Assembly: GCA_934692625.1 (NCBI GenBank)
Contig: CAKUUC010000010.1
Location: 5,337 to 69,336, forward strand
Length of the DNA stretch: 64,000 nt
Direction of reading: 5' to 3'
DNA from: an uncultured Candidatus Melainabacteria bacterium
GTDB taxonomy: Bacteria; Cyanobacteriota; Vampirovibrionia; Gastranaerophilales; Gastranaerophilaceae
Made by a program: the position numbers and the translations under genes. Under the pieces are notes generated by a model. That model saw nothing but the letters and a program-made list of their open reading frames with translations. It made no database searches and had not been told where the DNA came from. Position 1 is the first letter of the stretch; the number at the start of each line of letters is the position of its first letter. Shown in pieces: positions 8,956-37,399 of the stretch.

Positions 8956-8984
8956 ATACCCTCAATCTTGAGGGTATTTTTTTA
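8956..8984. terminator. Rho-independent terminator shared by convergent genes
   Basis: ATACCCTCA-ATCT-TGAGGGTAT followed by TTTTTT, with an A-run on the other side. Confidence 0.75.
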
Positions 8985-10243: not shown

Positions 10244-10753
10244 TTAAACAGACTTCTTTTCTAACTGCAAAAGGTATTGTTTGATTTTTAGTCCGCCTGC
10301 ATAGCCTGTTAATTCCCCATTTTTCCCAACAACTCTATGACAAGGGATAATTATTGATATCGGATTATGTCCGACTGCTCTGCCAACCGCTTGGGCTGAC
10401 ATTCTTTCAAGCCCTTTTTGTTTAGCGACTTTTTCTGCAATTTCACCATAAGTTGTCGTTTCGCCGTAAGGTATTTCGCATAAAATTTTCCAAACAGATT
10501 GTTTAAATTCATTACCTAAAGGTTTTAGCGGTAAATCGCCAATTTCAATCGCTTCACCTTGAAAATATTTATCAAGCCAAATTTTTATATCTTGAAAAAG
10601 TTTTAAATCTTTTGTTTCAGCCTTTTGCATGTCATATTTGCCACCAAAATACTTTTGACCTTCAAACCATAAACCATTTAGTGCGGTTCCCTCTGAACTC
10701 ATTATTATTTTTCCTACCGGCGAAAGGTATTCAGTTTTGTATAATTTTTCCAT
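10244..10753 (-). CDS. ogt: Methylated-DNA--protein-cysteine methyltransferase
   Basis: 169 aa with the active-site motif IPCHRVV and YGEIA in the helix-turn-wing region. Confidence 0.9.
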   Translation of the reverse strand: MEKLYKTEYLSPVGKIIMSSEGTALNGLWFEGQKYFGGKYDMQKAETKDLKLFQDIKIWLDKYFQGEAIEIGDLPLKPLGNEFKQSVWKILCEIPYGETTTYGEIAEKVAKQKGLERMSAQAVGRAVGHNPISIIIPCHRVVGKNGELTGYAGGLKIKQYLLQLEKKSV

Positions 10754-10819
10754 TTGAATTTTCCAAAATATTTTCGAATAGTTTTATTATACTATGTTTA
10801 AAATATTTTGGCTCAAATT

Positions 10820-12289: not shown

Positions 12290-12389
12290 ATCCTAAAAAT
12301 CTGTAACTAATATAGTCATATTACTCTTCTTGTTTAGTGCTTACAATTAACCATTCGGGCAATCTTTTATTCTGACTGATTTTGAGCCA

Positions 12390-20907: not shown

Positions 20908-20982
20908 GCGGGCATAGTTCAGTGGTAGAATGTCTCCTTCCCAAGGAGAAGATCGCGAGTTCGAGTCTCGTTGCCCGCTCCA
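20908..20982 (+). tRNA. tRNA-Gly (anticodon CCC)
   Basis: Cloverleaf read by hand. Acceptor GCGGGCA/TGCCCGC, D arm GTTC-AGTGGTA-GAAT, anticodon stem TCTCC/GGAGA with loop TTCCCAA, T arm GCGAG-TTCGAGT-CTCGT, discriminator T, encoded CCA. Confidence 0.9.
20938..20979 (+). repeat. attL core (direct repeat of 37149-37190)
   Basis: 42/42 nt identity with 37149-37190. Extends to 47 nt with one mismatch from 20933/37144. Confidence 0.85.
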
Positions 20983-20987
20983 TTAAA

Positions 20988-21013
20988 AAAGAGCCGTTTA
21001 GGCTCTTTATTTG
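20988..21013 (+). terminator. Island-borne terminator hairpin after the tRNA
   Basis: AAAGAGCC-GTTTA-GGCTCTTT followed by ATTTG. Confidence 0.6.
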
Positions 21014-21101
21014 TGTATTGCGGGATATTGAGTATTTTTATAGTTCTTTGGTTATATCAGTAATTTTTCTAAATTGTGCCATTTTGTGCCATGAATTTTC
21101 A

Positions 21102-21914
21102 TCATAGTTGGTACAAATTATTGAGTACCTCTCCTACTTTTTTATACGAAGTTTGTAATGAATGTGTATAAACATCTAAAGTTATAACAGATGAAGAATG
21201 CCCCATAAGTTTTTGTACCGTTTTGGGGTCAACACCATTGGTGACAAGAGAAGTTGAAAAAGTATGTCTTAAATCTTTGAATGTAAAATGACCAATTCCA
21301 CATGCATTTCTAACAGGGAGAAATAAACGATTAAATACATTATCTCCTAAGTACATTTCACCTTTACTATTTGGAAATACATATTTGCAACTACCAGTTT
21401 TTATTCTCTGTTCATTCAAAATCTTTTTTAAACGAGATGGTATAATAAATTTTCTATTAGAAGATTTTGTTTTAGGTGAGCATAAATTTTCTTTATATGC
21501 ACTATATTTTACGTTTATACAATTATTATCAAAATCTACATTTTCCCACATAAGAGCAACTAATTCCCCTCTGCGCATTCCTGTATAAACCGCAGTTGCA
21601 AGCATTGGGTAAAAATTAGGTTTAACTCTTTTGCATGTTTCAAATAGTTTTACTACTTCTTGTGGTGTTAATGCTCTTGCTTCTCTTGATACTACACTTT
21701 CGCAATGAACCTGTTTTACAACATTTTTAAAAATAGCTTCATTTTCAACTTGACGTTCAATTATAGAACCTAGCAAAATTTTATATTTTACCACACTGGC
21801 AGAACTCAAAAGTCTATCATTTTTGAGGTATAAAATAAAATCTTCTACATCTTTTTTACTTATTAAGTATAATTTTGCATTACCAAAGAATGGTAGACCA
21901 CTTAGATTAAACAT
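21102..21914 (-). CDS. int: Tyrosine site-specific recombinase (short, 270 aa)
   Basis: Catalytic signature GMRRGEL (R), KDLRHT (H/K-x-x-R), GHSS and VYTH (Y). The ORF is closed by an in-frame TAG 11 codons upstream, so no N-terminal arm-binding domain is present. Confidence 0.85.
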   Translation of the reverse strand: MFNLSGLPFFGNAKLYLISKKDVEDFILYLKNDRLLSSASVVKYKILLGSIIERQVENEAIFKNVVKQVHCESVVSREARALTPQEVVKLFETCKRVKPNFYPMLATAVYTGMRRGELVALMWENVDFDNNCINVKYSAYKENLCSPKTKSSNRKFIIPSRLKKILNEQRIKTGSCKYVFPNSKGEMYLGDNVFNRLFLPVRNACGIGHFTFKDLRHTFSTSLVTNGVDPKTVQKLMGHSSSVITLDVYTHSLQTSYKKVGEVLNNLYQL

Positions 21915-22097
21915 TGTAAAATTCGGTTGTATCCCTTTTATAATCTATATTTCAAATATTATTACAAATTTGTAACATTATGTGTTGTGATAAGGAGACT
22001 TGACAAAAACATGCCTGTAAACCACCTTATTTAGTGAAATATTATAAAATAATTAAGATTGAACGTTGAGTTATACCACTAATAATATAATTAATAT

Positions 22098-23087
22098 ATG
22101 AATAATAATTTAAAACACCTAATTAAAACATTCAAAGACGAGTTTGGAATTAAACTTGAAGATACAAACATTGATAATATCTTGGGTTTGAAAGAATTAC
22201 ATTTACAACCTTATATCTGGCGACCTTATTTAGAAAAGGAAGAACAATTTTTACAAACTCAGTTAAAAGCCTACTTATACAATGAACAACGTGCTAAGTA
22301 TAACAACCCTATAACAGAATGTGTATTTCAGGAGTATAAGAATAGATATATCCTTGTTTCATATTTGAGTGATTTTAGCAAAGTGAATAAACTATCCGAT
22401 TATACTGATATTATTATAACATTTTATGATGCTTATGAACCAAAGTGTAAAACAATTAGACGTACACTTTCAAAATGTGGTAAAAAGCCTAAACGTTATA
22501 CACGGTTTAGATTAAAACCTGATTCTATACCTGAAATATTTAGCCAAAAGTTCAATGAAATTGGACTATACTTAAACAGAACGAATGATTCACAACAGAT
22601 TTATACCCAAAGATTTTTACCAATGGTATATCTTATAAATAATAACCCTAAATTAACACCTAATATACAAGGACATCATACAAATTATGATACAAGTGTA
22701 GAAATTGGGTCTAAAACCTCTATTTTACCAATTCGTGAAGATTTGCATACAAAAGAGTTCCTCCCATCTAATATAATTGGTAGTGCAGGGTCTAATTTCA
22801 ATATTGCGAAAGGTATAATGTATTCTGATATGTTACAACTGAAGTATTTCAAGGTTAAACCAAAGAAGTATGACCACAAGGTACACGAGAATATTTTTGA
22901 TATTTTAGACCTCTATTTTATACAAAAACTTAGTATATCTGAGATTAAACGATATTTAGAACAGCATAAATCTAATTCTAAACTTGTGTATAACACCATT
23001 AAAAACATTGTAGAACACTTTAAACAATATACACCAGTTTTGACCAAAGAGAATATACAAAAGATAAAAAATAAGCAATTATCTTGA
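22098..23087 (+). CDS. Hypothetical island protein with C-terminal helix-turn-helix-like segment
   Basis: 329 aa. The C-terminal FDILDLYFIQKLSISEIKRYLEQ looks like a sigma-region-4/LuxR-type HTH. The rest is unrecognised. Confidence 0.5.
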   Translation: MNNNLKHLIKTFKDEFGIKLEDTNIDNILGLKELHLQPYIWRPYLEKEEQFLQTQLKAYLYNEQRAKYNNPITECVFQEYKNRYILVSYLSDFSKVNKLSDYTDIIITFYDAYEPKCKTIRRTLSKCGKKPKRYTRFRLKPDSIPEIFSQKFNEIGLYLNRTNDSQQIYTQRFLPMVYLINNNPKLTPNIQGHHTNYDTSVEIGSKTSILPIREDLHTKEFLPSNIIGSAGSNFNIAKGIMYSDMLQLKYFKVKPKKYDHKVHENIFDILDLYFIQKLSISEIKRYLEQHKSNSKLVYNTIKNIVEHFKQYTPVLTKENIQKIKNKQLS

Positions 23088-23230
23088 AAAATGGGGGCAG
23101 AAAACTAAGTATAAATCAGAGTTTGAAATAAGCCTAAAACTCTTTCTACACTTGCAATATACAGGCATGATTTTGGTGCAAAATTTGGTAAACTCGGAGA
23201 GGTAAAATTGTGATATGTAGCAAGGGGTAA

Positions 23231-23551
23231 TTATAAGTTTTTACCAATCAAATATAATATTTTTAATTTATCTTCTGGAAGCCTTTCTACCAATGTAGCT
23301 ATTTCAGTTTTCAGATTTTCAACATTCTCAATCGGTTCAAAATCAAACAAATCTTTCATTGAACAGTTAAACACTTTTATCATATTTGTAAGAGTTTCTG
23401 GATTTGGGAAACTACTACCCAATTCAATGAGTGAAACTTGACGTTGCGTTCGCTCAATCTTTTCACCTAGCTCTTCTTGGGTTAAACCTATTTGATTTCT
23501 ATAATGCTTTATTTTCAACCCTAAAAGGGTTTTCAATTCTATATCGTTCAT
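23231..23551 (-). CDS. XRE-family HTH transcriptional regulator
   Basis: LKIKHYRNQIGLTQEELGEKIERTQRQVSLIELG. The start is moved to the ATG at 23551, preceded by GAGG. Divergent from the defence operon. Confidence 0.8.
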   Translation of the reverse strand: MNDIELKTLLGLKIKHYRNQIGLTQEELGEKIERTQRQVSLIELGSSFPNPETLTNMIKVFNCSMKDLFDFEPIENVENLKTEIATLVERLPEDKLKILYLIGKNL

Positions 23552-23630
23552 TAAAACCTCAATTAAATTATACGTGTTTGCACATCTTAATTGAACGTAA
23601 CTATATCTTGTAAAATTTAACGTTTTATTA

Positions 23631-23687
23631 TATAACATGTTGTAAAATATGATATTATACAGCTTATTTACAACATAAGATGTTATA
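23631..23687. promoter_or_regulatory. Inverted repeat in the divergent XRE/SNF2 control region (candidate operator)
   Basis: TATAACATGTTGTAAA (23631-23646) versus TTTACAACAT-AAGAT-GTTATA (23667-23687). Confidence 0.35.
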
Positions 23688-23706
23688 TTTAAGAGGTAAA
23701 TAATAA

Positions 23707-26700
23707 TTGGAAGTAATAGACAATATAAATAATATTTTAAAAGATGATTTGGCTACTACCATAAAGCCCAATAGTAAAGTGTCTATCGCTTCAGCATGTT
23801 TTTCAATCTATGCCTATAAAGAATTAAAAAAGCAACTTGAAAGCATTGATGAACTACGTTTTATCTTTACATCTCCAGCATTTGTAAAAGAACGAACCCC
23901 TAAAACACAAAGAGAGTTCTACATTCCTAGATTATCAAGAGAAAAAAGTTTATACGGTACAGAATATGAAATAAAACTCCGCAACGAATTAACTCAACGT
24001 TCTATCGCCAAAGAATGTGCAGAATGGATTAAAAGAAAAGTAAAATTCAAGTCTAATATAACAAATGAACAAATGTCTGGTTTTATAAATGTAGAAAGTG
24101 ATGATACTTATACATATTTGCCTGTTAATGGATTTACAACAACTGATATTGGTTGTGAAAAAGGAAACACTCTAACCAATATTGTTACAAGATTTGAAAC
24201 CCCACAAAGTCAAACTTTTTTAAAAACATTTGACACTATTTGGAATGACAAAACAAAACTACAAGATGTTACAGAACAAATCATTGAAAGTATTTCCACC
24301 GTCTATAAAGAAAATTCTGGAGAATTTATATATTTCATAACCTTATACAACATTTTTAATGAATTTTTGCAAGATATTTCAGAAGACAATTTGCCAAATG
24401 ATGCAACTGGATATAAAAACAGTGTAATTTGGAATAAGTTATTTGATTTTCAGAAAGATGCTTGCCTCGCAATTATCAATAAATTAGAAACATATAATGG
24501 TTGTATATTAGCTGATAGCGTGGGCTTAGGTAAAACTTTTACAGCACTATCTGTTATTAAATATTACGAAAACAGAAATAAATCAGTATTAGTTTTATGC
24601 CCTAAAAAGTTAAGCAATAACTGGGTTATGTATAAAAGCAATTACTTAAATAATCCCCTTGCAAATGACAGGCTTAGATACGATGTACTTTATCATACAG
24701 ATTTGTCAAGAGAAAAAGGATTTTCTAACGGTTTAGACTTGTCTTTAATCAACTGGGGAAATTATGACCTTATTGTAATTGATGAATCTCACAATTTCCG
24801 TAACGGCGGAGATATAAAAGATGACAAAGAAAACAGATACCTTCGTTTAATGAATAGAGTCATAAGAAGTGGAGTTCAAACAAAAGTTCTTATGCTTTCT
24901 GCAACCCCAGTAAACAACCGATTTAATGACTTGAAAAATCAACTACAACTTGCCTATGAAGGCGATACTAGAAAAATAGACTCTAAATTAAATACTAAAA
25001 AACCTATTAATGTAATTTTCAGACAAGCACAACAAGCATTTAATGAATGGTCAAAACTCCCAGCAGATGAAAGGACTACTGAATGTTTATTGAATATGCT
25101 TGATTTTGATTTCTTTGAATTGTTAGACAGTGTAACGATTGCTCGGTCAAGAAAACATATTGAAAAATATTATGATACATCAAGTATTGGTAAATTTCCA
25201 ACTCGTCTACCTGTAATTTCGTTAAGACCACCACTAACAGAAAATACCGAAAGGATAAACTACAACCAAATTTATGAACATATAAGTGCTTTAAATCTAA
25301 AAATTTATATGCCTTCATTATTTATATTTCCAAGTAAAGAAGCGAAATATTATGATGTAGAAGCTAAACAAGCAAATATCAAATCTTCTAAAACTGGTCA
25401 AATTGGTCGTGAAGAAGGTATTCGCCGTTTAATGAGTATAAATTTATTAAAAAGGCTTGAAAGCTCTGTCTACTCATTCAAATTAACTCTTACACGAGTA
25501 CAACAACTTATTACATCTACTCTTCAAAATATTGAAAATTTCAAGACAAATGGCACAAATTCTAATATTGAGGTCGATGATTACATTCACCCAGAAAATG
25601 ATTTTGATGATGACGATTTGAATACAAATTTATTTTCAATTGGTAATAAGCTAAAAATAGACTTTAACGATATGGATTATATATCTTGGGAAAGTCAATT
25701 ACAAGCAGACTTAGAGATTTTAAATGATTTGATATTTGAAATTGAAAAAATATCACCTGAAGAAGATGCCAAACTTCAAAAACTTTTAACGTTGATAATA
25801 AACAAAATAGAACACCCTATAAATCCTGATAATAAAAAAGTCATTGTATTTTCGGCCTTTGCCGATACCGCAGAGTATTTATACAAACATATTAGCAAGT
25901 ATGTAAAAGAAAATTTTGGTATAGAAAGTGCAATGGTTACAGGTTCAAAAGACGGTGTTACAACTTTATCAAAAATCAAAACAGATTTGAATACGGTTCT
26001 AACATATTTTTCACCACGCTCCAAAGATAAAGATTTAATCTATCCAAATGATAATAGACAAATTGATATTTTAATTGCTACGGATTGTATTTCAGAAGGT
26101 CAAAACTTGCAAGACTGTGACTATCTGATAAACTATGATATTCATTGGAATCCTGTAAGAATTATCCAACGTTTTGGGCGTATTGACAGAATTGGCAGTA
26201 AAAACGATGTAATACAACTGGTTAATTTTTGGCCAGATTTAACGCTTGATGAATATATCAACTTAAAAGCTCGTGTTGAAACAAGAATGAAAGTTACAGT
26301 TATGACTTCAACTGGAACAGGTGCAGACAATGTTCTTGATGAAAGCGAAAAAGAAGACTTGGAATACAGAAAAAGACAGCTCCAAAAACTACAATCAGAA
26401 GTTGTTGATATTGAAGATATGAACTCAGGCATTAATATTATGGACTTGGGACTAAACGAATTTAGGTTAGATTTGTTGTCTTATATGAAAGATAACCCTG
26501 ATGTTGAAAATTCTCCGTCTGGTTTACACGCAATAGTAAAAGGTGATAAAGAGTTAAAATCTGGTGTCATTTATATCCTTAAAAATGTATCAAACACCAT
26601 AAATATAGATAATCAAAACAGATTACACCCATTTTATATGGTTTATATCGCAGATGATGGAGAAGTTATTTGTAATTACTTACAACCTAAAAGCCTACTT

Positions 26701-26961
26701 GATTTGATGCGCAAACTTGGCAAACAAAATCCAGAGCCAAATAGTGAATTATGCAAAATATTTAATCAAGAAACACAAGATGGCAAAAATATGGGTAAAT
26801 ATTCAAAACTTTTGGAAGAAACAATTTGCTCAATTATTGACGTAAAAGATGAAAGTGATTTTGAAAGTTTGTTTTCTACTGGCGAAAGTTCTTATATGAA
26901 AAACACTATTTCTGGACTTGATGACTTTGAACTCATTTGTTTTTTGGTAGTAAAGGAGTAA
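23707..26961 (+). CDS. SNF2-family helicase with extra N-terminal (PLD-like/unknown) region
   Basis: 1084 aa, TTG start after AAGAGG. Motif I ADSVGLGKT, motif II VIDESHNFRN, SATPVNN, and helicase-C motifs DCISEGQNLQ and HWNPVRIIQRFGRIDRIGS. Confidence 0.9.
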   Translation: MEVIDNINNILKDDLATTIKPNSKVSIASACFSIYAYKELKKQLESIDELRFIFTSPAFVKERTPKTQREFYIPRLSREKSLYGTEYEIKLRNELTQRSIAKECAEWIKRKVKFKSNITNEQMSGFINVESDDTYTYLPVNGFTTTDIGCEKGNTLTNIVTRFETPQSQTFLKTFDTIWNDKTKLQDVTEQIIESISTVYKENSGEFIYFITLYNIFNEFLQDISEDNLPNDATGYKNSVIWNKLFDFQKDACLAIINKLETYNGCILADSVGLGKTFTALSVIKYYENRNKSVLVLCPKKLSNNWVMYKSNYLNNPLANDRLRYDVLYHTDLSREKGFSNGLDLSLINWGNYDLIVIDESHNFRNGGDIKDDKENRYLRLMNRVIRSGVQTKVLMLSATPVNNRFNDLKNQLQLAYEGDTRKIDSKLNTKKPINVIFRQAQQAFNEWSKLPADERTTECLLNMLDFDFFELLDSVTIARSRKHIEKYYDTSSIGKFPTRLPVISLRPPLTENTERINYNQIYEHISALNLKIYMPSLFIFPSKEAKYYDVEAKQANIKSSKTGQIGREEGIRRLMSINLLKRLESSVYSFKLTLTRVQQLITSTLQNIENFKTNGTNSNIEVDDYIHPENDFDDDDLNTNLFSIGNKLKIDFNDMDYISWESQLQADLEILNDLIFEIEKISPEEDAKLQKLLTLIINKIEHPINPDNKKVIVFSAFADTAEYLYKHISKYVKENFGIESAMVTGSKDGVTTLSKIKTDLNTVLTYFSPRSKDKDLIYPNDNRQIDILIATDCISEGQNLQDCDYLINYDIHWNPVRIIQRFGRIDRIGSKNDVIQLVNFWPDLTLDEYINLKARVETRMKVTVMTSTGTGADNVLDESEKEDLEYRKRQLQKLQSEVVDIEDMNSGINIMDLGLNEFRLDLLSYMKDNPDVENSPSGLHAIVKGDKELKSGVIYILKNVSNTINIDNQNRLHPFYMVYIADDGEVICNYLQPKSLLDLMRKLGKQNPEPNSELCKIFNQETQDGKNMGKYSKLLEETICSIIDVKDESDFESLFSTGESSYMKNTISGLDDFELICFLVVKE

Positions 26962-26964
26962 AAA

Positions 26965-27615
26965 TTGCTATTTAGTGAAAAGACACAATTAAATAGAATT
27001 ATGCCAAAGGCAAAGTTTATGAAACTTGCAGAACTATCAACACCTGTAAGAGCGGAATTTCAAAACAATGTTGAAAGACTGATTTTGGCAAATATTTTAC
27101 GACAAGAAACTACTAATATCTCAAAAGGTAAAAATGTTCAGGAGATAGATGTTTTTGAATTTTTGCTTAAAGAAAAACATGTGTCTAACAATTTGATAAA
27201 AGAAATTGATGTTGCAATACCTAAATATATTCTTTTCGTTTTCAAGTGTAATAATGCCATTCAACTTGCAATTTCTTATAAAGAGCCTTCTATAAATGAC
27301 AATAAATATAAGGTTATAAAGACCTATAAAACAGAATGGCAAAAACAAGAGGATATAAAGCTTGAAATTACAGGGCTTGACTTAGATGCAGTATATAACA
27401 GTTTTATAACCCAAATAGCAAATGGACAAGTAGAAACAGATGAAACAACAGATATAAAAAGTGCGGTCGAAAAATCTATCAATGTAGAAAAACTTCAAAA
27501 GAAAATTGAAACACTAAAATCCAAAATCCGCAAAGAACCACAATTCAATAAACAACTGATAATGAAAAAAGAATTGAAAGAACTTCAAAAAACATTGGAG
27601 GAAGTACATGGTTAA
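26965..27615 (+). CDS. DUF4391-like protein
   Basis: 216 aa, TTG start after AAGGAG. The pattern IMPKAKF...ILANILRQETTNI...VQEIDVFEFLLKEK...IPKYILFVF matches my memory of DUF4391, which typically follows SNF2 helicases. Confidence 0.65.
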   Translation: MLFSEKTQLNRIMPKAKFMKLAELSTPVRAEFQNNVERLILANILRQETTNISKGKNVQEIDVFEFLLKEKHVSNNLIKEIDVAIPKYILFVFKCNNAIQLAISYKEPSINDNKYKVIKTYKTEWQKQEDIKLEITGLDLDAVYNSFITQIANGQVETDETTDIKSAVEKSINVEKLQKKIETLKSKIRKEPQFNKQLIMKKELKELQKTLEEVHG

Positions 27616-29803
27616 AGATATAGAATTTAAACAAATTCAAAATAATAGAATTTTTGATAGTTCTTTTGAAAAATTTGAAAATAATAATATAATTTCATTT
27701 TCTCCAAAAGGAATTATAGTAATTTATGCCCCTAATGGAACAGGTAAAACGAGTTTTATTGAAGCTTTATCTGGCTTAAAAGATACTAAACTTAAGTTTA
27801 AATATAATAATAAAGAATATGACACAGGTGAAAACATTTTCTCTACTATTCAAGATCAGAATGATAGAAATATTATTCAAGGTAATACTAAAGATTTTTA
27901 TCTTGGTAAAAATGTTCGAAAAGAATTTGAATTGGAAGAAAGTTTGGAAAATATTAGAAAAAATGTTGTTGATAAAATTATAGAAATAGCTACAACTCAT
28001 AAAATGAAAAATTTATCTTCTTTGTTGTTAGATTGCTTTACTGAGAATGAAAAAGATTTCTTATCAAAGGCTATAAATAACAAAAACAAACTAAATAGTG
28101 CAACAAATAAAGATATTATTTCATTTGTTAATAAAATACCTGAAATAACCGAGTTAAAATATGATACTAATAAATTTAACTTTTTAGAAAATGATTTATC
28201 ACAAAAAACTTCCACAATTAAATTACTTGAAAATTTAAAAAATGAAGAACTTAAACAAAATAAAGATATTATAAAATTTGAAGAAAATAATGATGCAATA
28301 AAAATCCTAAACAAATATTCCAACCACAATTGTATAATATGTGATAGTGAAATTGATAGAGAATTATTGTTAAAAGCAAAACAAGATAAGCAAATATCTA
28401 TAAAAAAGACATTAGATGATAATACTAAAAAAATTTTAGAAGAAGTATTAAACATTGACTTACAAAAAGACCCTTTTAACATCAAATCAATTATTTTAAA
28501 AGCGATTGAAACTGGAGATAAGACGGTCTTAAATCCACTAATAGATGACATTGAAAAATATAAAAACTTTTTTAAAGAACAAATTTTATATGATATTAAA
28601 AATATTGAAGGGTTTAAAACATTTGAAAAAATAGAAACTAAATATAGTGATTTAATTGCAAAACAACCAGATATTGAAAATGAAGATATCGAATTTATCC
28701 AACAATATATTAAAGATTGTATGAATAAAGACTTTCAAATAAGCCGAGCTGAAGGGAAAAAATACTTACAAATACAACTTGATGAGCAAGATTTTTTAGG
28801 AAAAGATAGAAAAGATTTACCTTTAAGCACAGGTGAACAAAATTTTCTATCACTTTTTATGGAATTTCTAAGGGTCAAAAACTCTGAAAATCCAATAGTT
28901 GTAATTGATGACCCTATATCCAGTTTTGATTCTATTTATAAGAATAAAATTATATATTCAATTGTAAAAGTATTACAAAACAAACAAATTATCCTTTTAA
29001 CACATAATACTGATGTTATAAGATTATTAAAATCACAAGCTGGAAAAACTTTTAATTTGTATATATTAAACAATACTAAAGGTTCTGATAATAATGGATT
29101 TATTTCTATAAATAATAAAGAACTTAAACTATTAACTGATTTAGCAGAATTAACCAAATTTTTTAGAGAAGATGTTTTTGAACAAATAAAAGATGTTAAT
29201 CTATTTTTATATTCAATGATTCCTTTTCTAAGAGGATATGCACATATAACAGGAAATGAAGATGCGTATGAACAATTAACTAAATTAATGCATGGTTATA
29301 TGGCTGAAAATATCGATATTGCCGCTATTTATAAAAGTATATTTGGAAATAAGAACAACAAAATCCCAACGGTGTTTTCAAAAAATATTACTGATATTTT
29401 AAATCTAAAGGACTTTGGAGAAATTATCAATCAAGACAACTATCCTTTATTAAACAAAACATTAAGACATACCCTAACATATCTATATTTAAGATTACTC
29501 GTAGAAAAAACGTTAGTTGAAAAATTTCAAATAGATCCCAATAAACATAAGACGTTAGGAAGTATCATATCTGTTGCATTTCCAAATGATAAGAACACTA
29601 TAATATTGAAAAATCGTATTCGTTTGACATCTAAGAAAACATTAATCAATGAATTTAATCATTTTGAAGGGAATTTAAGTATTTTTCAGCCAGCAATAGA
29701 TATAACTGATGCAACTTTAGAAAAAGAAAAAAAAGATATTGAAGATTTTGTAAAAAAGTTAAAGAAAGAGGTAAGTGGTGGAAAAGATGAGATTGGAAAG
29801 TAA
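27608..29803 (+). CDS. ABC/AAA_13-type ATPase with coiled-coil zinc hook, RloC/PrrC-like (candidate anticodon nuclease)
   Basis: 731 aa. Walker A APNGTGKTS, a roughly 360-aa K/E-rich insert with CIIC (28331-28342), signature LSTGEQ, Walker B VVIDDP, LLTHN, then a roughly 250-aa C-terminal domain (LRHTLTYLYLRLLVEK, LINEFNHFEG). Confidence 0.7.
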   Translation: MVKDIEFKQIQNNRIFDSSFEKFENNNIISFSPKGIIVIYAPNGTGKTSFIEALSGLKDTKLKFKYNNKEYDTGENIFSTIQDQNDRNIIQGNTKDFYLGKNVRKEFELEESLENIRKNVVDKIIEIATTHKMKNLSSLLLDCFTENEKDFLSKAINNKNKLNSATNKDIISFVNKIPEITELKYDTNKFNFLENDLSQKTSTIKLLENLKNEELKQNKDIIKFEENNDAIKILNKYSNHNCIICDSEIDRELLLKAKQDKQISIKKTLDDNTKKILEEVLNIDLQKDPFNIKSIILKAIETGDKTVLNPLIDDIEKYKNFFKEQILYDIKNIEGFKTFEKIETKYSDLIAKQPDIENEDIEFIQQYIKDCMNKDFQISRAEGKKYLQIQLDEQDFLGKDRKDLPLSTGEQNFLSLFMEFLRVKNSENPIVVIDDPISSFDSIYKNKIIYSIVKVLQNKQIILLTHNTDVIRLLKSQAGKTFNLYILNNTKGSDNNGFISINNKELKLLTDLAELTKFFREDVFEQIKDVNLFLYSMIPFLRGYAHITGNEDAYEQLTKLMHGYMAENIDIAAIYKSIFGNKNNKIPTVFSKNITDILNLKDFGEIINQDNYPLLNKTLRHTLTYLYLRLLVEKTLVEKFQIDPNKHKTLGSIISVAFPNDKNTIILKNRIRLTSKKTLINEFNHFEGNLSIFQPAIDITDATLEKEKKDIEDFVKKLKKEVSGGKDEIGK

Positions 29804-31640
29804 GGATATTACTGACGAAAATATAAAAAAGATTTTGGAGTTGTTTCCGAATGTTGCAACTGAGGCGAAAGATGAAAATGGTGAATTAAGAACAGCGATT
29901 GATTTTGATAAACTAAAACAGGAATTGTCAAAAGATGTTGTTGAAGGTGAAGAATGCTATGCTTTTACTTGGGTTGGCAAAAAAGAAGCGATGGTTGAAG
30001 CAAATAGACCAATCAGAAAAACATTGAGACCTTGTAGAGATAAATCATTAAATTGGGAAGATACTGAAAACATCTACATAGAAGGTGATAACCTTGAAGC
30101 TTTAAAACTCTTGCAAGAAAGTTATTTAGGTAAAATCAAAATGATTTATATAGATCCACCTTATAATACAGGAAATGACTTTGTTTATAAAGATAATTTT
30201 ACGCAAGATAAAGATAGTTATAATGAAGAACTCGGCATAAAAGATGAAGATGAAAATAGATTGTTCCAAAATACAGAATCTAACGGAAGATTTCATAGTG
30301 ATTGGTGTTCAATGATATATTCAAGGTTAAAACTTGCAAGGAATTTATTATCAGATGACGGTGTAATTTTTATTTCGATTGATGATAATGAAGTTAGAAA
30401 TTTGAAAAATATATGTGATGAAGTCTTTGGATATGAAAATATAATCTCACAATTTGTGTGGGAAAAGAAAACTTCTGGTGGGCAACACGCACACAATGTT
30501 TTAGATTTCCACGAATATATATTAGCTTATGCAAAATCAATATCTCAAATAATTGAATTTGCTGTGCCTAGAACGAAAAAACAACTAGCATCATTCACTC
30601 AAGAAGATGAATTTGTTAAAGCTAGGGGAAGGTATTTATTAAGTCCATTAAAGTCTTGGTTGGATTATAGAAAAACATTAATTTATGATATAGAATGCCC
30701 AGATGGTTCAATACTTAATACTCAATGGGTTTGTGCGAAAGATACTTTTGAAAAATTAAAATATGAAAATCGAATTGTTTTTAAAAAAAATAATAAAGGT
30801 GAATGGTCTGTTTATAAAAAGCAATATTCAAACGAAGAGGGTGGCTTTGTAAAACCAGCATCGATAATCACTGAGTATGGTCAAACAATGCATGGCAAAA
30901 AAGAAATTAAAGAATTATTTGAAAATAAAGACATAATAAGTTTTCCAAAACCAACCAAATTGATAAAATACCTTTTACAAATGCAAAGCGAGTCAGATAT
31001 AATTCTAGACTTCTTCTCTGGTTCAGCAACTACTGCTCATGCCTGTATGCAACTTAATGCAGAAGATGGCGGAAATCGAAAATTTATTATGGTTCAACTT
31101 CCTGAAAAAACTGATGAAAAATCTGAGGCTTTTAAAGCTGGTTATAAAAACATTTGTGAAATTGGGGAAGAACGTATTAGACGTGCAGGGCAACAGATTC
31201 TGAATCAAGTTCAGAATGACGGTAAAAAGATTGATGTTGGGTTCAGAGTTTTCAAAGTTGATGATACTAACATGAAAGATATATATTATTCACCTAATGA
31301 AACAAACCAAAAACAATTAGGCTTATACGAAAGCAATATCAAAGATGACAGAACTGACGAAGATTTGTTATATGGTTGTTTGTTAGATTGGGGTGTAGAA
31401 TTATCGCTTCCACACAGAGTTGAAATTATTGATGACAAACGTGTTCATATAGTAGATGAAGATGCTCTTGTTGCGTGTTTTGAAGAAAATATTCCAGAAA
31501 GTGTTATTCGTAAAATTGCAGGCATGAAACCATTAAGAGTTGTATTCAGAGATAGTTCATTCAATAGTGACGACAACAAAATCAATGTTGAAGAAATATT
31601 CAAACTTATCACTCCTGATACAAGGGTTAAGGTTATTTAG
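29787..31640 (+). CDS. mod: Type III-like DNA methyltransferase (Mod; beta-class N6A/N4C)
   Basis: DPPYNTG (motif IV) precedes DFFSGSATTAHA (motif I). ATG at 29787 preferred over GTG at 29775. Overlaps the upstream gene. Confidence 0.9.
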   Translation: MRLESKDITDENIKKILELFPNVATEAKDENGELRTAIDFDKLKQELSKDVVEGEECYAFTWVGKKEAMVEANRPIRKTLRPCRDKSLNWEDTENIYIEGDNLEALKLLQESYLGKIKMIYIDPPYNTGNDFVYKDNFTQDKDSYNEELGIKDEDENRLFQNTESNGRFHSDWCSMIYSRLKLARNLLSDDGVIFISIDDNEVRNLKNICDEVFGYENIISQFVWEKKTSGGQHAHNVLDFHEYILAYAKSISQIIEFAVPRTKKQLASFTQEDEFVKARGRYLLSPLKSWLDYRKTLIYDIECPDGSILNTQWVCAKDTFEKLKYENRIVFKKNNKGEWSVYKKQYSNEEGGFVKPASIITEYGQTMHGKKEIKELFENKDIISFPKPTKLIKYLLQMQSESDIILDFFSGSATTAHACMQLNAEDGGNRKFIMVQLPEKTDEKSEAFKAGYKNICEIGEERIRRAGQQILNQVQNDGKKIDVGFRVFKVDDTNMKDIYYSPNETNQKQLGLYESNIKDDRTDEDLLYGCLLDWGVELSLPHRVEIIDDKRVHIVDEDALVACFEENIPESVIRKIAGMKPLRVVFRDSSFNSDDNKINVEEIFKLITPDTRVKVI

Positions 31641-31652
31641 GGAGGCGGAATA

Positions 31653-34600
31653 ATGAAACTTAAATTTAAACATCAAAAATTCCAATCAGACGCAGCCAAA
31701 GCGGTTGTTGATATATTCGCAGGTCAACCTTGTTTTTCTCCAACATCTTATATGATGGATATGGGATTTACCAAATCAGGAGATAACCAAATTAGTCAAA
31801 CATCGTTGCTTAATTATACTGGTTTTTGTAATCACGCAATAGTTCCAAACTTAAACAGAAATATAATCATTGACAACATGCAAAAAATCCAACGATTAAA
31901 CCAACTTGAACCATCAAAAGAAGTTATCAGCGGATTTAACCTAACTGTTGAAATGGAAACAGGTACTGGTAAAACTTATACTTACATAAAAACAATGTTT
32001 GAACTAAACAAACACTACGGTTGGAGTAAATTTATTATCGTAGTTCCTAGTATTGCGATTAGAGAAGGGGTTTACAAATCCTTTAATATTACGCAAGAAC
32101 ATTTTGCGGAAGAATACGGCAAGAAAATAAAATTCTTTATCTACAATTCTAAAAGATTAAACGAAATAGAACAATTCGCAAACGACGGCGGACTTAATGT
32201 AATGATTATCAACTCTCAAGCCTTTAATGCTCGTGGAAAAGATGCTCGTAGAATTTATATGAAGTTAGATAGTTTCCGCAGTAGAAGACCTATTGATGTA
32301 ATTGCAAAAACTAACCCAATCCTTATCATTGATGAACCGCAATCAGTTGAGGGTAAAATAACTAAGGAAAAACTAATTGAGTTTAACCCACTTATTACAC
32401 TTCGATATTCTGCGACTCCAAAAGAAAAATATAATTTGGTTTACAGACTAGATGCGGTAGAAGCTTATAACAAAAAACTTGTCAAAAAAATTGCAGTAAA
32501 AGGTGTTACTATTCAAGGCAGCGATGCAACAAACGGCTATTTATACCTACAAAATATAAATTTGTACAAAGACAAAGCACCAATGGCAAACATTGAATTT
32601 GACCAAAAAGGTACAAACAAAATTCGTAAAAATAGTAAACTTTTAAAAGAAGGTGACAATCTTTATCCTTTATCTGGTGAATTAGACGAGTACAAAAACA
32701 ATTATATTATTACCAAAATTGACGGCAGAGATAACTCCGTAACATTTTTAAACGGAACAAAGATTTTTGTCGGCAATGTCTTAGGCGAAGAAAACGAAGA
32801 CCAAATAAGACGTATTCAAATCCGAGAAACTATACTTGCACATATAGAAAAAGAACGTAAATTGTTTTTCAAAGGTATAAAAGTTTTATCATTATTCTTT
32901 ATTGATGAAGTAGCAAAATATAAGCAATATGATGAATCAAACAACGAACTAAACGGAATTTATGCGGATATGTTTGAAGAAGAATATGAAAATATTATGA
33001 ATGAACTTCAAATAAAATTCGGCGAAGATGATTATATCAGATACCTAAAAGGAATTTCCGCAAAAAGTACACATGCAGGTTATTTCTCAATCGATAAAAA
33101 AAGTAAAAAAATAATCAATTCAACCGAAGATAAAAAAGAAGGTGGTTCAAATGCTGTTGATGCTTTTGATTTAATCATGAGGAACAAAGAAAGATTACTT
33201 AGTTTTGACGAACCTGTTAGATTTATCTTTTCACATTCTGCACTTAGAGAAGGTTGGGATAATCCAAACGTATTCCAAATTTGTACACTTAGAAAAACAA
33301 ACAGCACAGATAAAAAACGTCAAGAAATTGGGCGAGGTTTAAGACTTTGCGTAAACCAAAACGGAGAAAGAATGGATTCTAGCAAACTAGGTGAAACCGT
33401 TCACGATATAAATATTTTAACCGTAATTGCTAATGAAAGTTATGCTAGCTTTACAGAAAAATTACAATCAGAAATTGCTGAAATCACAACCGATAGACCG
33501 CAAGAGGTTAATGAAAAACTATTTGAAGGTAAATTGATTACAAATGCGAATGGCGAAGAACAAACTATTGACATCAATTTAGCGAAAAGAATACACAATT
33601 TATTTATTCGAAACAATTATATTGATGACGATAATAAACTTACAGAAGTTTACTATGAAGCTCAAAAAACAGGAAATATTGCTCTCCCTGAAAACCTTGT
33701 AGGTTATGAAGATTCTATTATAAAAATTGTAGATATGATTTACAACCCAAATACAATGGCTCCTGAAAATTTGAACGAAAGCAAACCTAAACTTGAAATT
33801 GATAAAGAGAAATTAAACAAAAAAGAATTTCAAGAATTGTGGAAAAGAATTAACACAAAAACCGCTTATGTCGTGAATTTTGAAACAAATGAGTTGATAG
33901 AAAAATCAATAAAATCTATTGATAAAAACTTAGCCGTAACAAGGTTGTATTCAGTAATACAAACAGGTTCTATGGATAAAATCGATTCAAAAGAAGCTTT
34001 AGAAAAAGGAACAGCTTTTGATAACGGGAAAATTTACAAAGAAGATATAAAAACCTTACATTGTGGAATTAAATATGACTTAATTGGCAAAATCGTTGAA
34101 GAAACAAAACTTACTCGTAAATCCGTTGTAAAAATTTTACAAGGTATTCACTCAGAAACATTCAACCAATTTAAAATAAACCCAGAAGATTTTATCATTA
34201 AGGTTTCTAATTTGATAAATGAAGAAAAAGCAACTGTTATTATAGAACATATCACATATAACAAGCTGGAAGAAGCTTATCAGACGGATATATTTGCAGA
34301 ACCTGAGATGAAAACAATTACAAACAAAAATTCACTTCCTGTTGAAAAGAATTTGTACAATTATCTTGTATATGATTCTGAAGTTGAAAAAGAATTTGGT
34401 GAAGATTTGGATAAAAACACAGATGTTTCAGTCTATGTAAAACTTCCAAAAGGTTTTTATATTAACACTCCTGTTGGGCATTACAACCCAGATTGGGCAA
34501 TCGCATTTAATGAAGGCTCAGTAAAGCATGTTTATTTTGTTGCAGAAACAAAAGGCTCAATGAGTTCACTACAACTAAAACCTATTGAACAAGCCAAAAT

Positions 34601-34700
34601 AAATTGTGCAAGAGAGCATTTTAAAACGATTAGTTCAGATAGTGTTCAGTATGATGTTGTAGATAATTATCAGGCACTACTTGATAAGGTTATGAGGTAG
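31653..34700 (+). CDS. res: Type III-like restriction enzyme Res subunit (helicase + PD-(D/E)xK nuclease)
   Basis: 1015 aa. METGTGKTYT, IIDEPQ, YSATP, SHSALREGWDNPNVF and the C-terminal YNPDW...FVAETKG nuclease motif. GGGAGG RBS. Confidence 0.9.
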   Translation: MKLKFKHQKFQSDAAKAVVDIFAGQPCFSPTSYMMDMGFTKSGDNQISQTSLLNYTGFCNHAIVPNLNRNIIIDNMQKIQRLNQLEPSKEVISGFNLTVEMETGTGKTYTYIKTMFELNKHYGWSKFIIVVPSIAIREGVYKSFNITQEHFAEEYGKKIKFFIYNSKRLNEIEQFANDGGLNVMIINSQAFNARGKDARRIYMKLDSFRSRRPIDVIAKTNPILIIDEPQSVEGKITKEKLIEFNPLITLRYSATPKEKYNLVYRLDAVEAYNKKLVKKIAVKGVTIQGSDATNGYLYLQNINLYKDKAPMANIEFDQKGTNKIRKNSKLLKEGDNLYPLSGELDEYKNNYIITKIDGRDNSVTFLNGTKIFVGNVLGEENEDQIRRIQIRETILAHIEKERKLFFKGIKVLSLFFIDEVAKYKQYDESNNELNGIYADMFEEEYENIMNELQIKFGEDDYIRYLKGISAKSTHAGYFSIDKKSKKIINSTEDKKEGGSNAVDAFDLIMRNKERLLSFDEPVRFIFSHSALREGWDNPNVFQICTLRKTNSTDKKRQEIGRGLRLCVNQNGERMDSSKLGETVHDINILTVIANESYASFTEKLQSEIAEITTDRPQEVNEKLFEGKLITNANGEEQTIDINLAKRIHNLFIRNNYIDDDNKLTEVYYEAQKTGNIALPENLVGYEDSIIKIVDMIYNPNTMAPENLNESKPKLEIDKEKLNKKEFQELWKRINTKTAYVVNFETNELIEKSIKSIDKNLAVTRLYSVIQTGSMDKIDSKEALEKGTAFDNGKIYKEDIKTLHCGIKYDLIGKIVEETKLTRKSVVKILQGIHSETFNQFKINPEDFIIKVSNLINEEKATVIIEHITYNKLEEAYQTDIFAEPEMKTITNKNSLPVEKNLYNYLVYDSEVEKEFGEDLDKNTDVSVYVKLPKGFYINTPVGHYNPDWAIAFNEGSVKHVYFVAETKGSMSSLQLKPIEQAKINCAREHFKTISSDSVQYDVVDNYQALLDKVMR

Positions 34701-34802
34701 AAGAAAAGAGGTAAAAAATAAAAGGGTATAGCTATTCTTATATTCTTTTGGATTGGAATGAACTTTTTTAAATCCAAATCGTTCTAATATTAGGAGAAAA
34801 TT

Positions 34803-35216
34803 ATGAAAAAACTTTTTGCAATTATATTTGTATCTTTGTTATTAACTGGTAGTGCATTTGCTGGTAACACCTACAACCAATACGGTAGTAAAACAGGTTC
34901 GTACAGAACAAATGGCTCTACAACCACAACTTATGATAGATACGGTTCGCGCACAGGCTCTTACAAAACTAACGGCAACACAACCACAAAATACGACCAG
35001 TACGGTTCAAGACAAGGCACAATCAAAAAGACAACATCTGGTTACACCACATACGATAAATATGGGAGTCGAACAGGTAGTTATAAGACAAACTCTAACG
35101 GTACAACCACATCTTATGACAAATACGGTAGAAAAACAGGCTCGTTCAAAACAGATTCCACAGGTAGAACAACTCAATACGACCGCTACGGCAGAAAAGT
35201 TGGAAGTTTTAAGTAA
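34803..35216 (+). CDS. Secreted tandem-repeat protein (six roughly 20-aa YD-x-YG-x-x-TGSYKT repeats)
   Basis: Signal peptide MKKLFAIIFVSLLLTGSAFA, then YDRYGSRTGSYKTNGNTTTK-type units six times. AGGAG RBS. Confidence 0.7.
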   Translation: MKKLFAIIFVSLLLTGSAFAGNTYNQYGSKTGSYRTNGSTTTTYDRYGSRTGSYKTNGNTTTKYDQYGSRQGTIKKTTSGYTTYDKYGSRTGSYKTNSNGTTTSYDKYGRKTGSFKTDSTGRTTQYDRYGRKVGSFK

Positions 35217-35346
35217 TAATGCATATATTCACTTTTGCAAAAATTTTAAACAAATTTAATCTGTTTTTCACTGGCTCATTACTGGCTCATAAAATTTAAA
35301 CAAAATAGTAAAAAAAACAATATTTATAATACTTTTCGCACAATAT

Positions 35347-36687
35347 TTACTGGCTCATTACTGGCTCACTGATATTCAATTTGTAAATAATGTTTTTATT
35401 TTCTCCAGCCGAAACAAAAATATTTCTATCACATAAAGTCGTAATATCCCTTTTCGCTTGTGCTCGTGAAGCCTCTGTAATTTCTTGGTAGATTTTTGTT
35501 GTAATATACCCTTGTTCTACTACATATTTGATAGCCTTATTTTGTCTTTCATTTAAGCCATTGTATTGTTTGTACATCTGTAGAATAAAACCACCTTGAG
35601 ATGTTTCAAATATTGGAGCTGGAATCCCTTGTTTCAGGCATGCCGTAATCATACGTTTTATACCTGTGCCAAATTGTTCAACATAACCCGCCATATAGAT
35701 AATTTTCATAATCAATGGATTTCTTGACTTTGATGTATGAGATACGGTTAATTTATCAAGAGTTAAACCTCCAAATAAATCCCCAGAGTTATAAATCCAA
35801 ATACTATCTCCGAAAATTTTAATCTGTATTGCTGAACTAAAATCAAAGTAGTCTTTGTGAATAATAGCATTTAAAACAGCTTCTCTCAATGCTGGCAACG
35901 GATAATCCCAAATATCTTCTCTTTGAAATCCTTTAATTTCTGCTCTCATATTTATAAACAATTTCAAAACAGAGTCAACATCTTCAATTTGTTCAAATAA
36001 ATTACCTGTGATATTTTTGTCACTTATAATTACGGATTCATCATCACCCTTAAATAAACCAACCCTAATAGTTGCTGTCGATAGTAATTTTTGTGGATTC
36101 TTGCCAAATAATAAAATTGCTCCATTTGTAAGTTTATTATCAATAATAAGTTCTAATTGAGTCAAAAGGTCGGTTATACTTAACTCTTTTGCTTCTTCTG
36201 GCAATCTTCCCTTATTTGTCGCAAGTTTAACAAATTTTTGAACTGTTTTCTCATCTATATCATCAAGCGTAAAACTATTAGTTATAGAGTCCCAACTTAT
36301 ATCTTTTAATAATAATTTCTTTAGTTCTTCTTTATTTGCTTCTCTTGTCGTGTTTCCAACTCTTTTGTAATACTTATTTTTATAAGCAATAGGCACAGAT
36401 GATTTTTCAACCGTGATTTTTAGAATGTCTTTATCTTCAATATGTAAAAGTTCAACATTTGGTTGAATGCCTGTTAAATCAATAATTTTGTTAGTTAGTG
36501 CCTCTTGTTTTCCATTAGACAAATCAATACCTACAATATTTTTTGTTTCATCTTCAACACCAAGAATAATGCAACCCCCATCAGTATTTGAAAAGGCAGA
36601 AATAGACTTGAATAATCCTTCACTTACTTCTTGTTTATATTCAATAACATTGCATTCATCTAACAAATTTTCTAAATCTTTATTCAT
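35347..36687 (-). CDS. AlbA_2 (Schlafen-like) + HATPase_c_4 + C-terminal wHTH protein (often mis-annotated as RecG-like)
   Basis: VIEYKQEVSEGLFKSISAFSNTDGGCIILGVED is AlbA_2-like. REAVLNAIIHKDY is HATPase_c_4-like. The C-terminal NERQNKAIKYVVEQGYITTKIYQEI is a wHTH. Confidence 0.75.
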   Translation of the reverse strand: MNKDLENLLDECNVIEYKQEVSEGLFKSISAFSNTDGGCIILGVEDETKNIVGIDLSNGKQEALTNKIIDLTGIQPNVELLHIEDKDILKITVEKSSVPIAYKNKYYKRVGNTTREANKEELKKLLLKDISWDSITNSFTLDDIDEKTVQKFVKLATNKGRLPEEAKELSITDLLTQLELIIDNKLTNGAILLFGKNPQKLLSTATIRVGLFKGDDESVIISDKNITGNLFEQIEDVDSVLKLFINMRAEIKGFQREDIWDYPLPALREAVLNAIIHKDYFDFSSAIQIKIFGDSIWIYNSGDLFGGLTLDKLTVSHTSKSRNPLIMKIIYMAGYVEQFGTGIKRMITACLKQGIPAPIFETSQGGFILQMYKQYNGLNERQNKAIKYVVEQGYITTKIYQEITEASRAQAKRDITTLCDRNIFVSAGENKNIIYKLNISEPVMSQ

Positions 36688-36693
36688 ACCTGT

Positions 36694-36722
36694 ATTATAC
36701 CAAAGATTTTAGCCGCAAGCAA
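36694..36722 (-). promoter_or_regulatory. Promoter giving a leaderless or near-leaderless AlbA_2 mRNA
   Basis: Minus strand: TTGCTT, 17 nt, TATAAT, then only 6 nt (ACAGGT) before the ATG at 36687. No RBS. Confidence 0.45.
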
Positions 36723-37148
36723 TTTTTAACTATAGAATATAAAGCATGGGTCATACCTTATGATATAGTTTTTCTCGTGTCACTAATATCAAGAGTATAA
36801 AAGCCTTTGCGGATTTGTCTAACTTAAAAATGGTGGGGCATGCATGGGGCATTCATAGACTACACACAACTAGCATATACAAAATATTGGAACTAGGTAT
36901 TTAATAAAAGTAGGGAGGGTATAGCTAAAAAAAATACTAATCTAAGTATAACAGTTTGGTTGAAATGCGCATCATAGTACAAACATAGTTCTATAATTTT
37001 TGTGCCATTTTGTGACATAAATGTATAATAATGGGTATAAATCTATCTAAATTTAAAAACTTAAAACTTGTCTGAAATGCTTTATCCATCTAACTTTATA
37101 CCAGATTGTATCAAAATAGTAAAATATATCAAAATTGGCTTTATCTCT

Positions 37149-37190
37149 TTCCCAAGGAGAAGATCGCGAGTTCGAGTCTCGTTGCCCGCT
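37149..37190 (+). repeat. attR core (displaced native 3' part of tRNA-Gly, no CCA)
   Basis: Identical to 20938-20979 but followed by AAT instead of CCA. Confidence 0.85.
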
Positions 37191-37204
37191 AATCTTTGCA
37201 TTAT

Positions 37205-37325
37205 GGGGGCAACGACGAGAACTCCTATTGGGTTTGAGCGACCTGTGAGCAGAGTGCGAAGGCCTTTTGCGAAAGAACGAAGTTCTGCAAGCAAAATTCG
37301 AAGACACGTTTAAGGCGAAGCGGTC
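37205..37325 (+). other. GC-rich segment of unknown nature (candidate structured RNA or relic)
   Basis: About 52% G+C by hand count in an AT-rich context. Open in three frames at once (ORFs 37053-37307, 37068-37313, 37082-37294). Lies between the native tRNA trailer and a strong terminator. Confidence 0.25.
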
Positions 37326-37330
37326 AAGAC

Positions 37331-37386
37331 AAAAAAGATATAAAACAAAGACCAGAACTATCTAGTCTTTGTTTTATATCTTTTTT
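37331..37386. terminator. Strong bidirectional terminator
   Basis: 22-bp perfect stem AAAAAAGATATAAAACAAAGAC / GTCTTTGTTTTATATCTTTTTT with a 12-nt loop. Confidence 0.8.
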
Positions 37387-37399
37387 AGCATCACGTAAT

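Follow-up and report, generated by a model that had tools for sequence, protein, structure and literature searches.

The question raised by one locus of an uncultured Candidatus Melainabacteria bacterium of the pig gut is whether the 16 kb of DNA between its tRNA-Gly(CCC) gene and a second, partial copy of that gene is an integrated element and, if so, whether the element can still move. The locus lies in a stretch of 64,000 nt (here called the window, in the coordinates of which all positions are given) of a 1.94-Mb assembly that is 97.8% complete, and statements about the island refer to positions 20980-37190. This segment of 16,211 bp is very probably an integrative genomic island that entered tRNA-Gly(CCC), decayed by deletion and is now a fixed passenger resembling a cis-mobilisable element (CIME). 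Genes were called with Pfam, PADLOC, PHROGs and NCBIfam, and tRNA and other RNA with ARAGORN and Rfam; the relatives used were genomes of the same genus (G001, G003, G009, G010, G013, G022, G030, G068 and G098), together with L106, a 66-kb pig-gut metagenome contig of the same species as the window. The features that mark the ends of the island are these:

20908-20982, plus strand: intact tRNA-Gly(CCC) (ARAGORN; Rfam tRNA, 69.5 bits)
20933-20979, plus strand: core of the left attachment site (attL), a 47-nt identity segment from the anticodon stem to the discriminator base (direct-repeat family D5)
20980-21013, plus strand: island-borne CCA and terminator hairpin (stem-loop 20988-21008), now ending the tRNA transcript (terminator scan)
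37144-37190, plus strand: core of the right attachment site (attR), the displaced native 3' part of the tRNA (direct repeat with the attL core)
37191-37331, plus strand: structured RNA module, not part of the island, directly after tRNA-Gly in the empty site (L106, G001)

An earlier note on this DNA had reported that the last 42 nt of the tRNA recur at the far end of the island, or 47 nt with one mismatch, and its coordinates and sizes are correct: a repeat finder returned 47 nt with a single mismatch (C at 20937, T at 37148), 42 nt of them exact, with 16,211 bp from one copy to the other, and the sequence occurs at these two places only in the assembly. The 3' portion of the tRNA, from the anticodon stem onwards and including an encoded CCA, now comes from the island side of attL, and the CCA-terminator segment (20980-21013) is kept in the attL arms of G098, G022 and G068. 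An identical att core delimits sister islands in G098, G022, G009 and G013, and the conserved non-coding arm at the attR end (the P arm) closes with the partial tRNA in five other genomes. Because all native tRNAs have C at the mismatched position, whereas the island-borne T is also found at attR of G098, G009 and G013, strand exchange probably took place 3' of this position in the anticodon stem, a pattern consistent with exchange in the anticodon loop, flanked by the inverted repeat of the stem. The anticodon loop is reportedly a recognised class of tRNA site in the 2002 survey of integrase sublocation preference by K. P. Williams.

The unoccupied site exists in nature. Contigs of the same species were found in public assemblies by exact identity of a 91-aa ACT protein whose gene lies immediately to the left of the tRNA; the island is present on at least 16 public contigs that encode the identical protein, and at three places, L106 among them, both flanks of the window (glycoside hydrolase 57, alanine symporter and ACT on the left; a 997-aa SNF2 protein and iPGM on the right) are found with their sides only 720 nt apart. 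When L106 is aligned with the window, the left flank and the intact tRNA are followed, base for base, by sequence from 37191; thus, the 16,211 bp are a precise insertion, polymorphic within the species. In G001, the nearest species genome (flanks 88-89% identical), tRNA-Gly likewise leads directly into a homolog of 37191-37331 and the island is absent. The earlier note had proposed looking for exactly this junction, and its reading of an integrated island bounded by tRNA repeats holds. So does its statement that everything between the repeats is accessory, as the nearest relatives lack this content and its distribution in the genus is patchy (any match in 20 of 76 genomes, none in G001 or G007). 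G+C content is ~29% within the island versus ~33-36% outside.

Gene order around the tRNA varies between species, and in none of 19 relatives does the tRNA lie within 1.5 kb of the 997-aa SNF2 gene. A scan of metagenome contigs for the empty junction returned one contig with another arrangement, in which a cas9-like gene follows the tRNA at 22 nt. On this contig, from another gut metagenome (L104, OIYG01000168.1, 330-740), tRNA-Gly(CCC) and 22 nt of the same trailer, AATCTTTGCATTATGGGTAGCA, run straight into a gene beginning MGKKVFAFDMGKTSIGFCV, with a Cas9-like RuvC-I motif and no integrase between. This suggests that the downstream side of tRNA-Gly(CCC) is a hotspot for defence genes.

The state of the recombination genes bears on whether the island can leave again. 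Two features describe what is left of them:

21102-21914, minus strand: truncated tyrosine integrase, 270 aa (Pfam Phage_integrase only, residues 81-253)
21895-21896, minus strand: deletion scar, lacking 1,047 bp that G098 and G022 have (DNA alignment A3)

The integrase (int) gene ends 122 nt from the att core, matching the distance of about 120 nt given earlier, and its ORF is closed upstream, as had also been seen, by an in-frame stop ~10-11 codons before the start (open frame of 280 codons). It had been described as a minimal integrase that lacks an arm-binding N-domain. The protein is indeed short, and alignment to full-length homologs confirms that the arm-binding residues are gone (1-91 are missing), but it is no special class of enzyme: a three-way DNA alignment of the window, G098 and G022 contains one clean 1,047-bp gap, between ...CTAAGTGGTC and TACCATTCTTTGG..., and this deletion, which took away the gene for the excisionase (xis), the first 91 int codons and non-coding DNA upstream of them, explains the minimal appearance of what remains. 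Residues 7-270 of the window protein correspond to residues 92-355 of the G098 integrase (96% identity), preceded by six foreign codons and a hybrid Leu codon in frame with residues 92-355, the deletion having placed Leu92 in frame behind the start codon of a small ORF (MFNLSG) that lay upstream.

The intact counterpart in G098, part of a homologous element at the same tRNA, has 355 aa with an Arm-DNA-bind_4 domain (11-47), a SAM-like core-binding domain (57-127) and a catalytic domain (166-338), and a 103-aa HTH_17 excisionase-like gene lies just upstream of it. Both the G098 and the G013 integrase carry Arm-DNA-bind_4, Phage_int_SAM_3/4 and Phage_integrase, the domain set of a heterobivalent integrase, and all intact close homologs in the genus (G098, G013, G010) have 355-367 aa. 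The XerD model matches the full-length protein from position 3 but the remnant only from position 38, so that, besides the arm-binding domain, roughly half of the core-binding domain has been lost; the window protein retains its catalytic domain and only part of the core-binding domain. Its catalytic residues are kept, with the first His of HxxR replaced by K (KDLRH) in the window and G098 alike. The G022 copy of the gene has decayed independently, by frameshifts and stops.

At least 22 independent contigs from ENA and Logan encode the identical 270-aa protein amid the same neighbouring genes, so the truncation is not an assembly error and the deletion is established in nature. Nothing in the assembly matches the deleted segment, and the other tyrosine recombinases there are at most 30% identical to the integrase; a replacement for the lost int and xis is absent from the genome. 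Beside the att site of the window there is thus a truncated gene where sister elements have intact versions, and since no working integrase or excisionase is apparent in cis or elsewhere in the genome, the island has probably lost the ability to move by itself. The suggestion that it is immobilised or dependent on a helper is therefore probable, the xis gene and the N-terminus of int having been deleted and no substitute being encoded in the genome.

Apart from two known records, a scan of genome contigs with the full-length integrase gave matches of at most 37% identity, and identity to any characterised integrase is at most 30%. End to end, the full-length protein shares 28-30% identity with integrases from temperate phages of Firmicutes, and among structures it matches those of Tn1549 and lambda Int.

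The two arms of the attachment sites are intact. Conservation among the window, G098, G022, G009, G030 and G068 extends over the whole left arm (20980-21101) and, on the right, over ~300 nt (~36850-37143), where the following features lie:

21075-21092, plus strand: candidate arm-type site of the left (P') arm, TGTGCCAT twice, 10 nt from start to start, 96 nt from the core
36850-37143, plus strand: P arm, ~300 nt, non-coding, common to all sister elements (alignment A4: window, G098, G009, G030, G022)
37001-37018, within the P arm: second candidate arm-type site, TGTGCCAT and TGTGACAT, 126 nt before the core

The earlier note had proposed two motifs shared between the arms as arm-type recombinase sites, of which one survives. 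The pattern TGTGCCATTTTGTG[C/A]CAT spans 21075-21092 and 37001-37018 (the earlier starts, 21074 and 37000, add a shared preceding T), and the 18-mer with the doubled TGTGNCAT, TGTGMCATTTTGTGMCAT, occurs at these two places only in the 64 kb, against 0.01 occurrences expected. The P' site is preserved in G098 and G022. In G013 both arms have instead a motif TGTGACAT...TGTGACA(T/G) at nearly the same distances from the core, with TGTGACAT twice at the P' position, and this retention of position while the sequence changes is the best available evidence for reading TGTGNCAT as an arm site. The doubled TGTGNCAT is thus a credible predicted arm-type site. The other motif, ATAGTTCT (21040-21047 and 36985-36992), is missing from both arms of the G098 element, and a shared 8-mer arose in 66% of shuffles; its recurrence is attributed to chance.

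These features would fit the following history. A lambda-type (heterobivalent) tyrosine integrase probably catalysed site-specific entry into tRNA-Gly(CCC), and the attP would have contained the tRNA sequence from the anticodon stem through the 3' end, followed by CCA and a terminator. Exchange of strands on the 3' side of the mismatch in the anticodon stem would have rebuilt a working tRNA at attL and moved the native 3' part to attR. The 1,047-bp deletion, which presumably followed integration, took xis and the first 91 int codons and left the rest of the integrase in frame with a start codon upstream. To move again, the island would need Int and Xis provided in trans by a related element.

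Several other explanations were considered. On one of them, the far repeat (37144-37190) arose as a local duplication or an unrelated tRNA pseudogene, and ordinary chromosomal genes lie before it. Beyond the prior possibility of a pseudogene, which the earlier note had raised, nothing speaks for this reading; it is refuted by the exact empty site within the species and by the partial tRNA that ends the conserved P arm in five other genomes, and the intervening content is missing from the nearest relatives, leaving it virtually no probability. Neither such a pseudogene nor the same genes without flanking repeats or with other boundaries, which the earlier note had named as grounds for abandoning its reading, was encountered. 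A degraded prophage or phage satellite is very improbable: the full-length integrase is closest to those of temperate Firmicutes phages, and the XRE regulator and excisionase resemble phage lysogeny modules, but no capsid, terminase, portal, primase or packaging gene is present in the window copy, G098 or G013, and the intact elements are only ~10-16 kb. PHROGs recognised an integrase, a regulator and a 'DNA helicase' (the Schlafen-like protein described below) and no structural or packaging gene, and this candidate identity was rejected. It is also most unlikely that the 270-aa protein works as a 'minimal' Xer/Cre-type recombinase, acting on core sites without arm binding and keeping the island autonomously mobile. 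Its catalytic domain is complete, its ORF is intact and identical across many samples, and its dN/dS against G098 is 0.08, a value that may mostly reflect the time before the deletion. However, the first helices of the core-binding domain are gone, the first seven codons derive from unrelated upstream DNA, all intact close relatives have the arm-binding domain, the arm sites of the family could presumably not be bound, and every contig seen has the island at a single locus.

The alternative that extends immobilisation by deletion, rather than replacing it, is that the island is a true CIME, still mobilisable when an incoming element of the G098 or G013 type supplies Int and Xis, which would recognise the intact cores and the TGTGNCAT arm sites. 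The att cores and arms are intact and near-identical to those of an element with full-length Int, related elements with intact int and xis circulate in the genus, and tandem accretion and co-transfer of CIMEs are documented in other families (PMC5704250). In contrast, no tandem array or second element was found at the site in any contig examined, and the host genome contains no helper; mobilisation in trans is accordingly regarded as possible but doubtful. Some points weigh against an island that is simply decayed and fixed. Loss of integrase activity is deduced from the missing domains, and a residual or new function of the remnant is possible, considering its preserved reading frame and catalytic residues, its low dN/dS and a promoter-like site. 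Moreover, no conjugation, replication or packaging gene by which the intact family could pass from cell to cell was found. The promoter-like site (TTGTCA, 18 nt, CATAAT; 21977-22006, minus strand) lies 60-90 nt upstream of the chimeric start codon, so that transcription of the int remnant may continue.

The same att core and arms are used by sister islands in G098, G022, G009, G030 and G013. The backbone of this element family is int, xis, an ORF of ~300 aa, a helix-turn-helix (HTH) regulator and conserved arms (~120 nt P', ~300 nt P), each of which has a doubled TGTGNCAT as its predicted arm-type site. Island blocks are 92-93% identical to G022, whereas the core flanks are 71-85% identical and the genomic context differs; this indicates horizontal transfer between species. 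Against G098 the flanks (91%) and the island (91-95%) are similarly conserved, which fits both shared ancestry and transfer between close relatives. No relaxase, coupling protein or type IV secretion system (T4SS) was found in the window copy, G098 or G013, and none of the family members has a recognisable relaxase, oriT or T4SS. The G013 sister element (L062, G013:C5:48000-62000, 2766-12332), ~9.6 kb long, occupies the same tRNA-Gly(CCC) with the same att core and encodes a 356-aa integrase (59% identity) and an 86-aa HTH_17 Xis; its cargo is a type II CRISPR-Cas system with a 1034-aa Cas9-like protein (HNH and RuvC domains), Cas1 and Cas2. Defence cargo is interchangeable within the family and comprises a composite of SNF2 and Type III restriction-modification (R-M) genes in the window and G022, and type II CRISPR-Cas9 in G013.

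The cargo and backbone genes of the window island are:

22098-23087, plus strand: backbone ORF of 329 aa (ORF329), always beside the int/xis module in the element family (only 15 homologs)
23231-23638, minus strand: XRE-type HTH regulator, divergent from the defence operon (Pfam HTH_3, E = 2.7e-9)
23707-26961, plus strand: SNF2-family helicase, 1084 aa, a PADLOC 'HKD+Snf2' candidate with a DrmD-like C-terminal half
26965-27615, plus strand: DUF4391 protein (Pfam, E = 1.1e-37)
27608-29803, plus strand: AAA_13 / SMC-like ATPase, 731 aa (Pfam, PADLOC)
29775-31640, plus strand: Type III methyltransferase, Mod (PADLOC MTase_III, E = 1e-227)
31653-34700, plus strand: Type III restriction enzyme, Res (PADLOC REase_III, E = 9e-296; NCBIfam PRK15483)
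34803-35216, plus strand: Tyr/Gly-rich repeat protein, 137 aa, with 60-63-nt tandem units (repeat families D1, D3, D8)
35347-36687, minus strand: Schlafen/AlbA_2 and HATPase_c_4 protein, 446 aa (Pfam; PHROG 12156, 'DNA helicase')

The SNF2 helicase, DUF4391, AAA_13 ATPase, Mod and Res genes form one operon, in which mod and res are adjacent, co-oriented and matched over their full length by their models, as expected of a Type III R-M system. The literature on DUF4391 was uninformative. In the G022 element (L058, G022:C5:2600-22500) the slot between DUF4391 and mod is occupied by a trypsin-like peptidase (278 aa) and a 210-aa ORF (9386-10838) instead of the AAA_13 gene; this slot of the operon is exchangeable. 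G022 also has an AAA_14/DUF4143 ATPase in place of the Schlafen-like gene, and the operon is otherwise 92-93% identical to that of the window; part of the window mod gene (~30470-30998) is unmatched in G022, which may mean a different target-recognition domain. In agreement with the earlier note, no excisionase, replication or transfer gene was detected in the island by Pfam, PADLOC, PHROGs or NCBIfam, and neither was a conjugation or packaging gene.

ORF329 has no match in Pfam, PADLOC, PHROGs or NCBIfam, and its AlphaFold2 model (pLDDT 65.6) gave no Foldseek match in PDB below E = 0.1. An HNH-like motif common to ORF329 and the backbone ORF of G013 was weak, not significant, and was discarded. 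Tentatively, the int-xis-ORF329-HTH backbone may define an undescribed family of small (~10-16 kb), non-phage, non-conjugative elements that would shuttle complete defence systems into tRNA-Gly(CCC) of gut Melainabacteria-like bacteria, with ORF329 as a new mobility or transfer factor and the truncated integrase kept for a secondary role; the proposal as a whole is rather unlikely.

Genes for the Tyr/Gly-rich repeat protein are found within 2 kb of tRNA-Gly(CCC) in several species (G068:C3:34117-34724, L068; G009:C4:223597-223924; G003:C15:28221-28687). In G068 the gene is fused to the first 103 nt of the attL arm, with the break inside the first TGTGCCAT, and the locus resembles a relic that an internal deletion has left of an element of this family.

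The sequence to the right of attR lies outside the island, as the earlier note had it, but is not plain chromosome: it begins with the RNA module (37191-37331) that followed the tRNA before the island arrived. Members of this module family occur 50-250 nt downstream of tRNA genes (Leu-GAG, Leu-CAG, Met, His, Arg-TCT, Val and Gly-CCC) in the genus, other copies being G000:C4:36250-36386 (L080) and G000:C3:138462-138600 (L081). Complete copies have a conserved core of ~95 nt, GAGCGACCTGTGAGCAGAGTGCGAAGG...CGTAGACACGTTTAATGCGAACAGGTCAAGACA, preceded by a T-stem-like strand and followed by a 15-18-nt copy of the 3' end of their own tRNA, an arrangement that resembles an insertion into the T-loop of a partially copied tRNA. 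The family alignment has compensatory changes in the apical stem (covariation), and Rfam found only tRNA in the island and the module. The Gly copy is complete in G001 and G098; its 3' closing strand is missing in the window and the empty-site contig.

A synteny break falls exactly at the right end of the module (window 37331-37400 versus G001 L057 3396-4700 and G000:C14:26600-27700). Downstream of tRNA-Gly, G001, G098, G009 and G003 have a small Cys-rich ORF with rpsI-rplM-truA-rpoA after it, whereas in the window species the module abuts the terminator of the 997-aa SNF2 gene, and rpoA-truA-rplM-rpsI is on another contig. In many other species, 10-19 kb separate the left flank from the 997-aa gene, and the orientation is inverted. 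This rearrangement predates the island, because the empty-site contig of the same species has the same arrangement.

The island is ordinary in kind and leaves the current understanding of integrative elements unchanged. It is a fully bounded example of a defence island that was captured and then probably locked into the chromosome by a single deletion, and a reminder that a short integrase ORF need not be a 'minimal' enzyme. A single int/xis chassis directed at one tRNA carries entire defence systems, Cas9 among them, in this little-studied gut lineage, and the predicted arm site (doubled TGTGNCAT) together with the intact G098 Int/Xis pair is a ready test system.

Similar to lambda-type islands in tRNA genes, the element has an identity segment that begins in the anticodon stem and extends to the tRNA 3' end, int beside the rebuilt tRNA, repeated candidate arm-type sites in both arms and, in intact members, an integrase with arm, SAM-like core-binding and catalytic domains and an HTH_17 excisionase upstream; it differs in that the window copy lacks xis and the integrase N-terminus and the family is confined to one gut genus. 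CIMEs are decayed integrative and conjugative elements (ICEs) or integrative and mobilisable elements (IMEs) in which attL and attR remain but the genes for integration and transfer are gone (PMC5704250; ICEberg 2.0, PMC6323972). The window island resembles them in its two intact att sites, its recombination module inactivated by deletion, its retained cargo and a plausible rescue by a related element: attL and attR are kept, xis is deleted, int is truncated and no transfer genes were found. Unlike a typical CIME, it still has a truncated int ORF, and its parental family shows no conjugation or mobilisation genes. As no conjugation or mobilisation module is visible in the window, G098 or G013, the family is not demonstrably a decayed ICE or IME.

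The defence operon shares with DISARM and BREX-type operons an SNF2 helicase (with a DrmD-like C-terminal half) in company with a methyltransferase; it differs from DISARM in that DrmA, DrmB and DrmC were not found and that SNF2, DUF4391 and an exchangeable third gene precede mod-res, the products of which match Type III R-M models over their full length. The tycheposons of Prochlorococcus carry replication modules (primase/helicase), which the window element lacks, and belong to a distinct recombinase group (bioRxiv 10.1101/2020.12.28.424599), but they too are small tyrosine-recombinase elements at specific tRNA genes, with variable cargo that includes defence genes, which decay in place and seed variable islands beside the tRNA.

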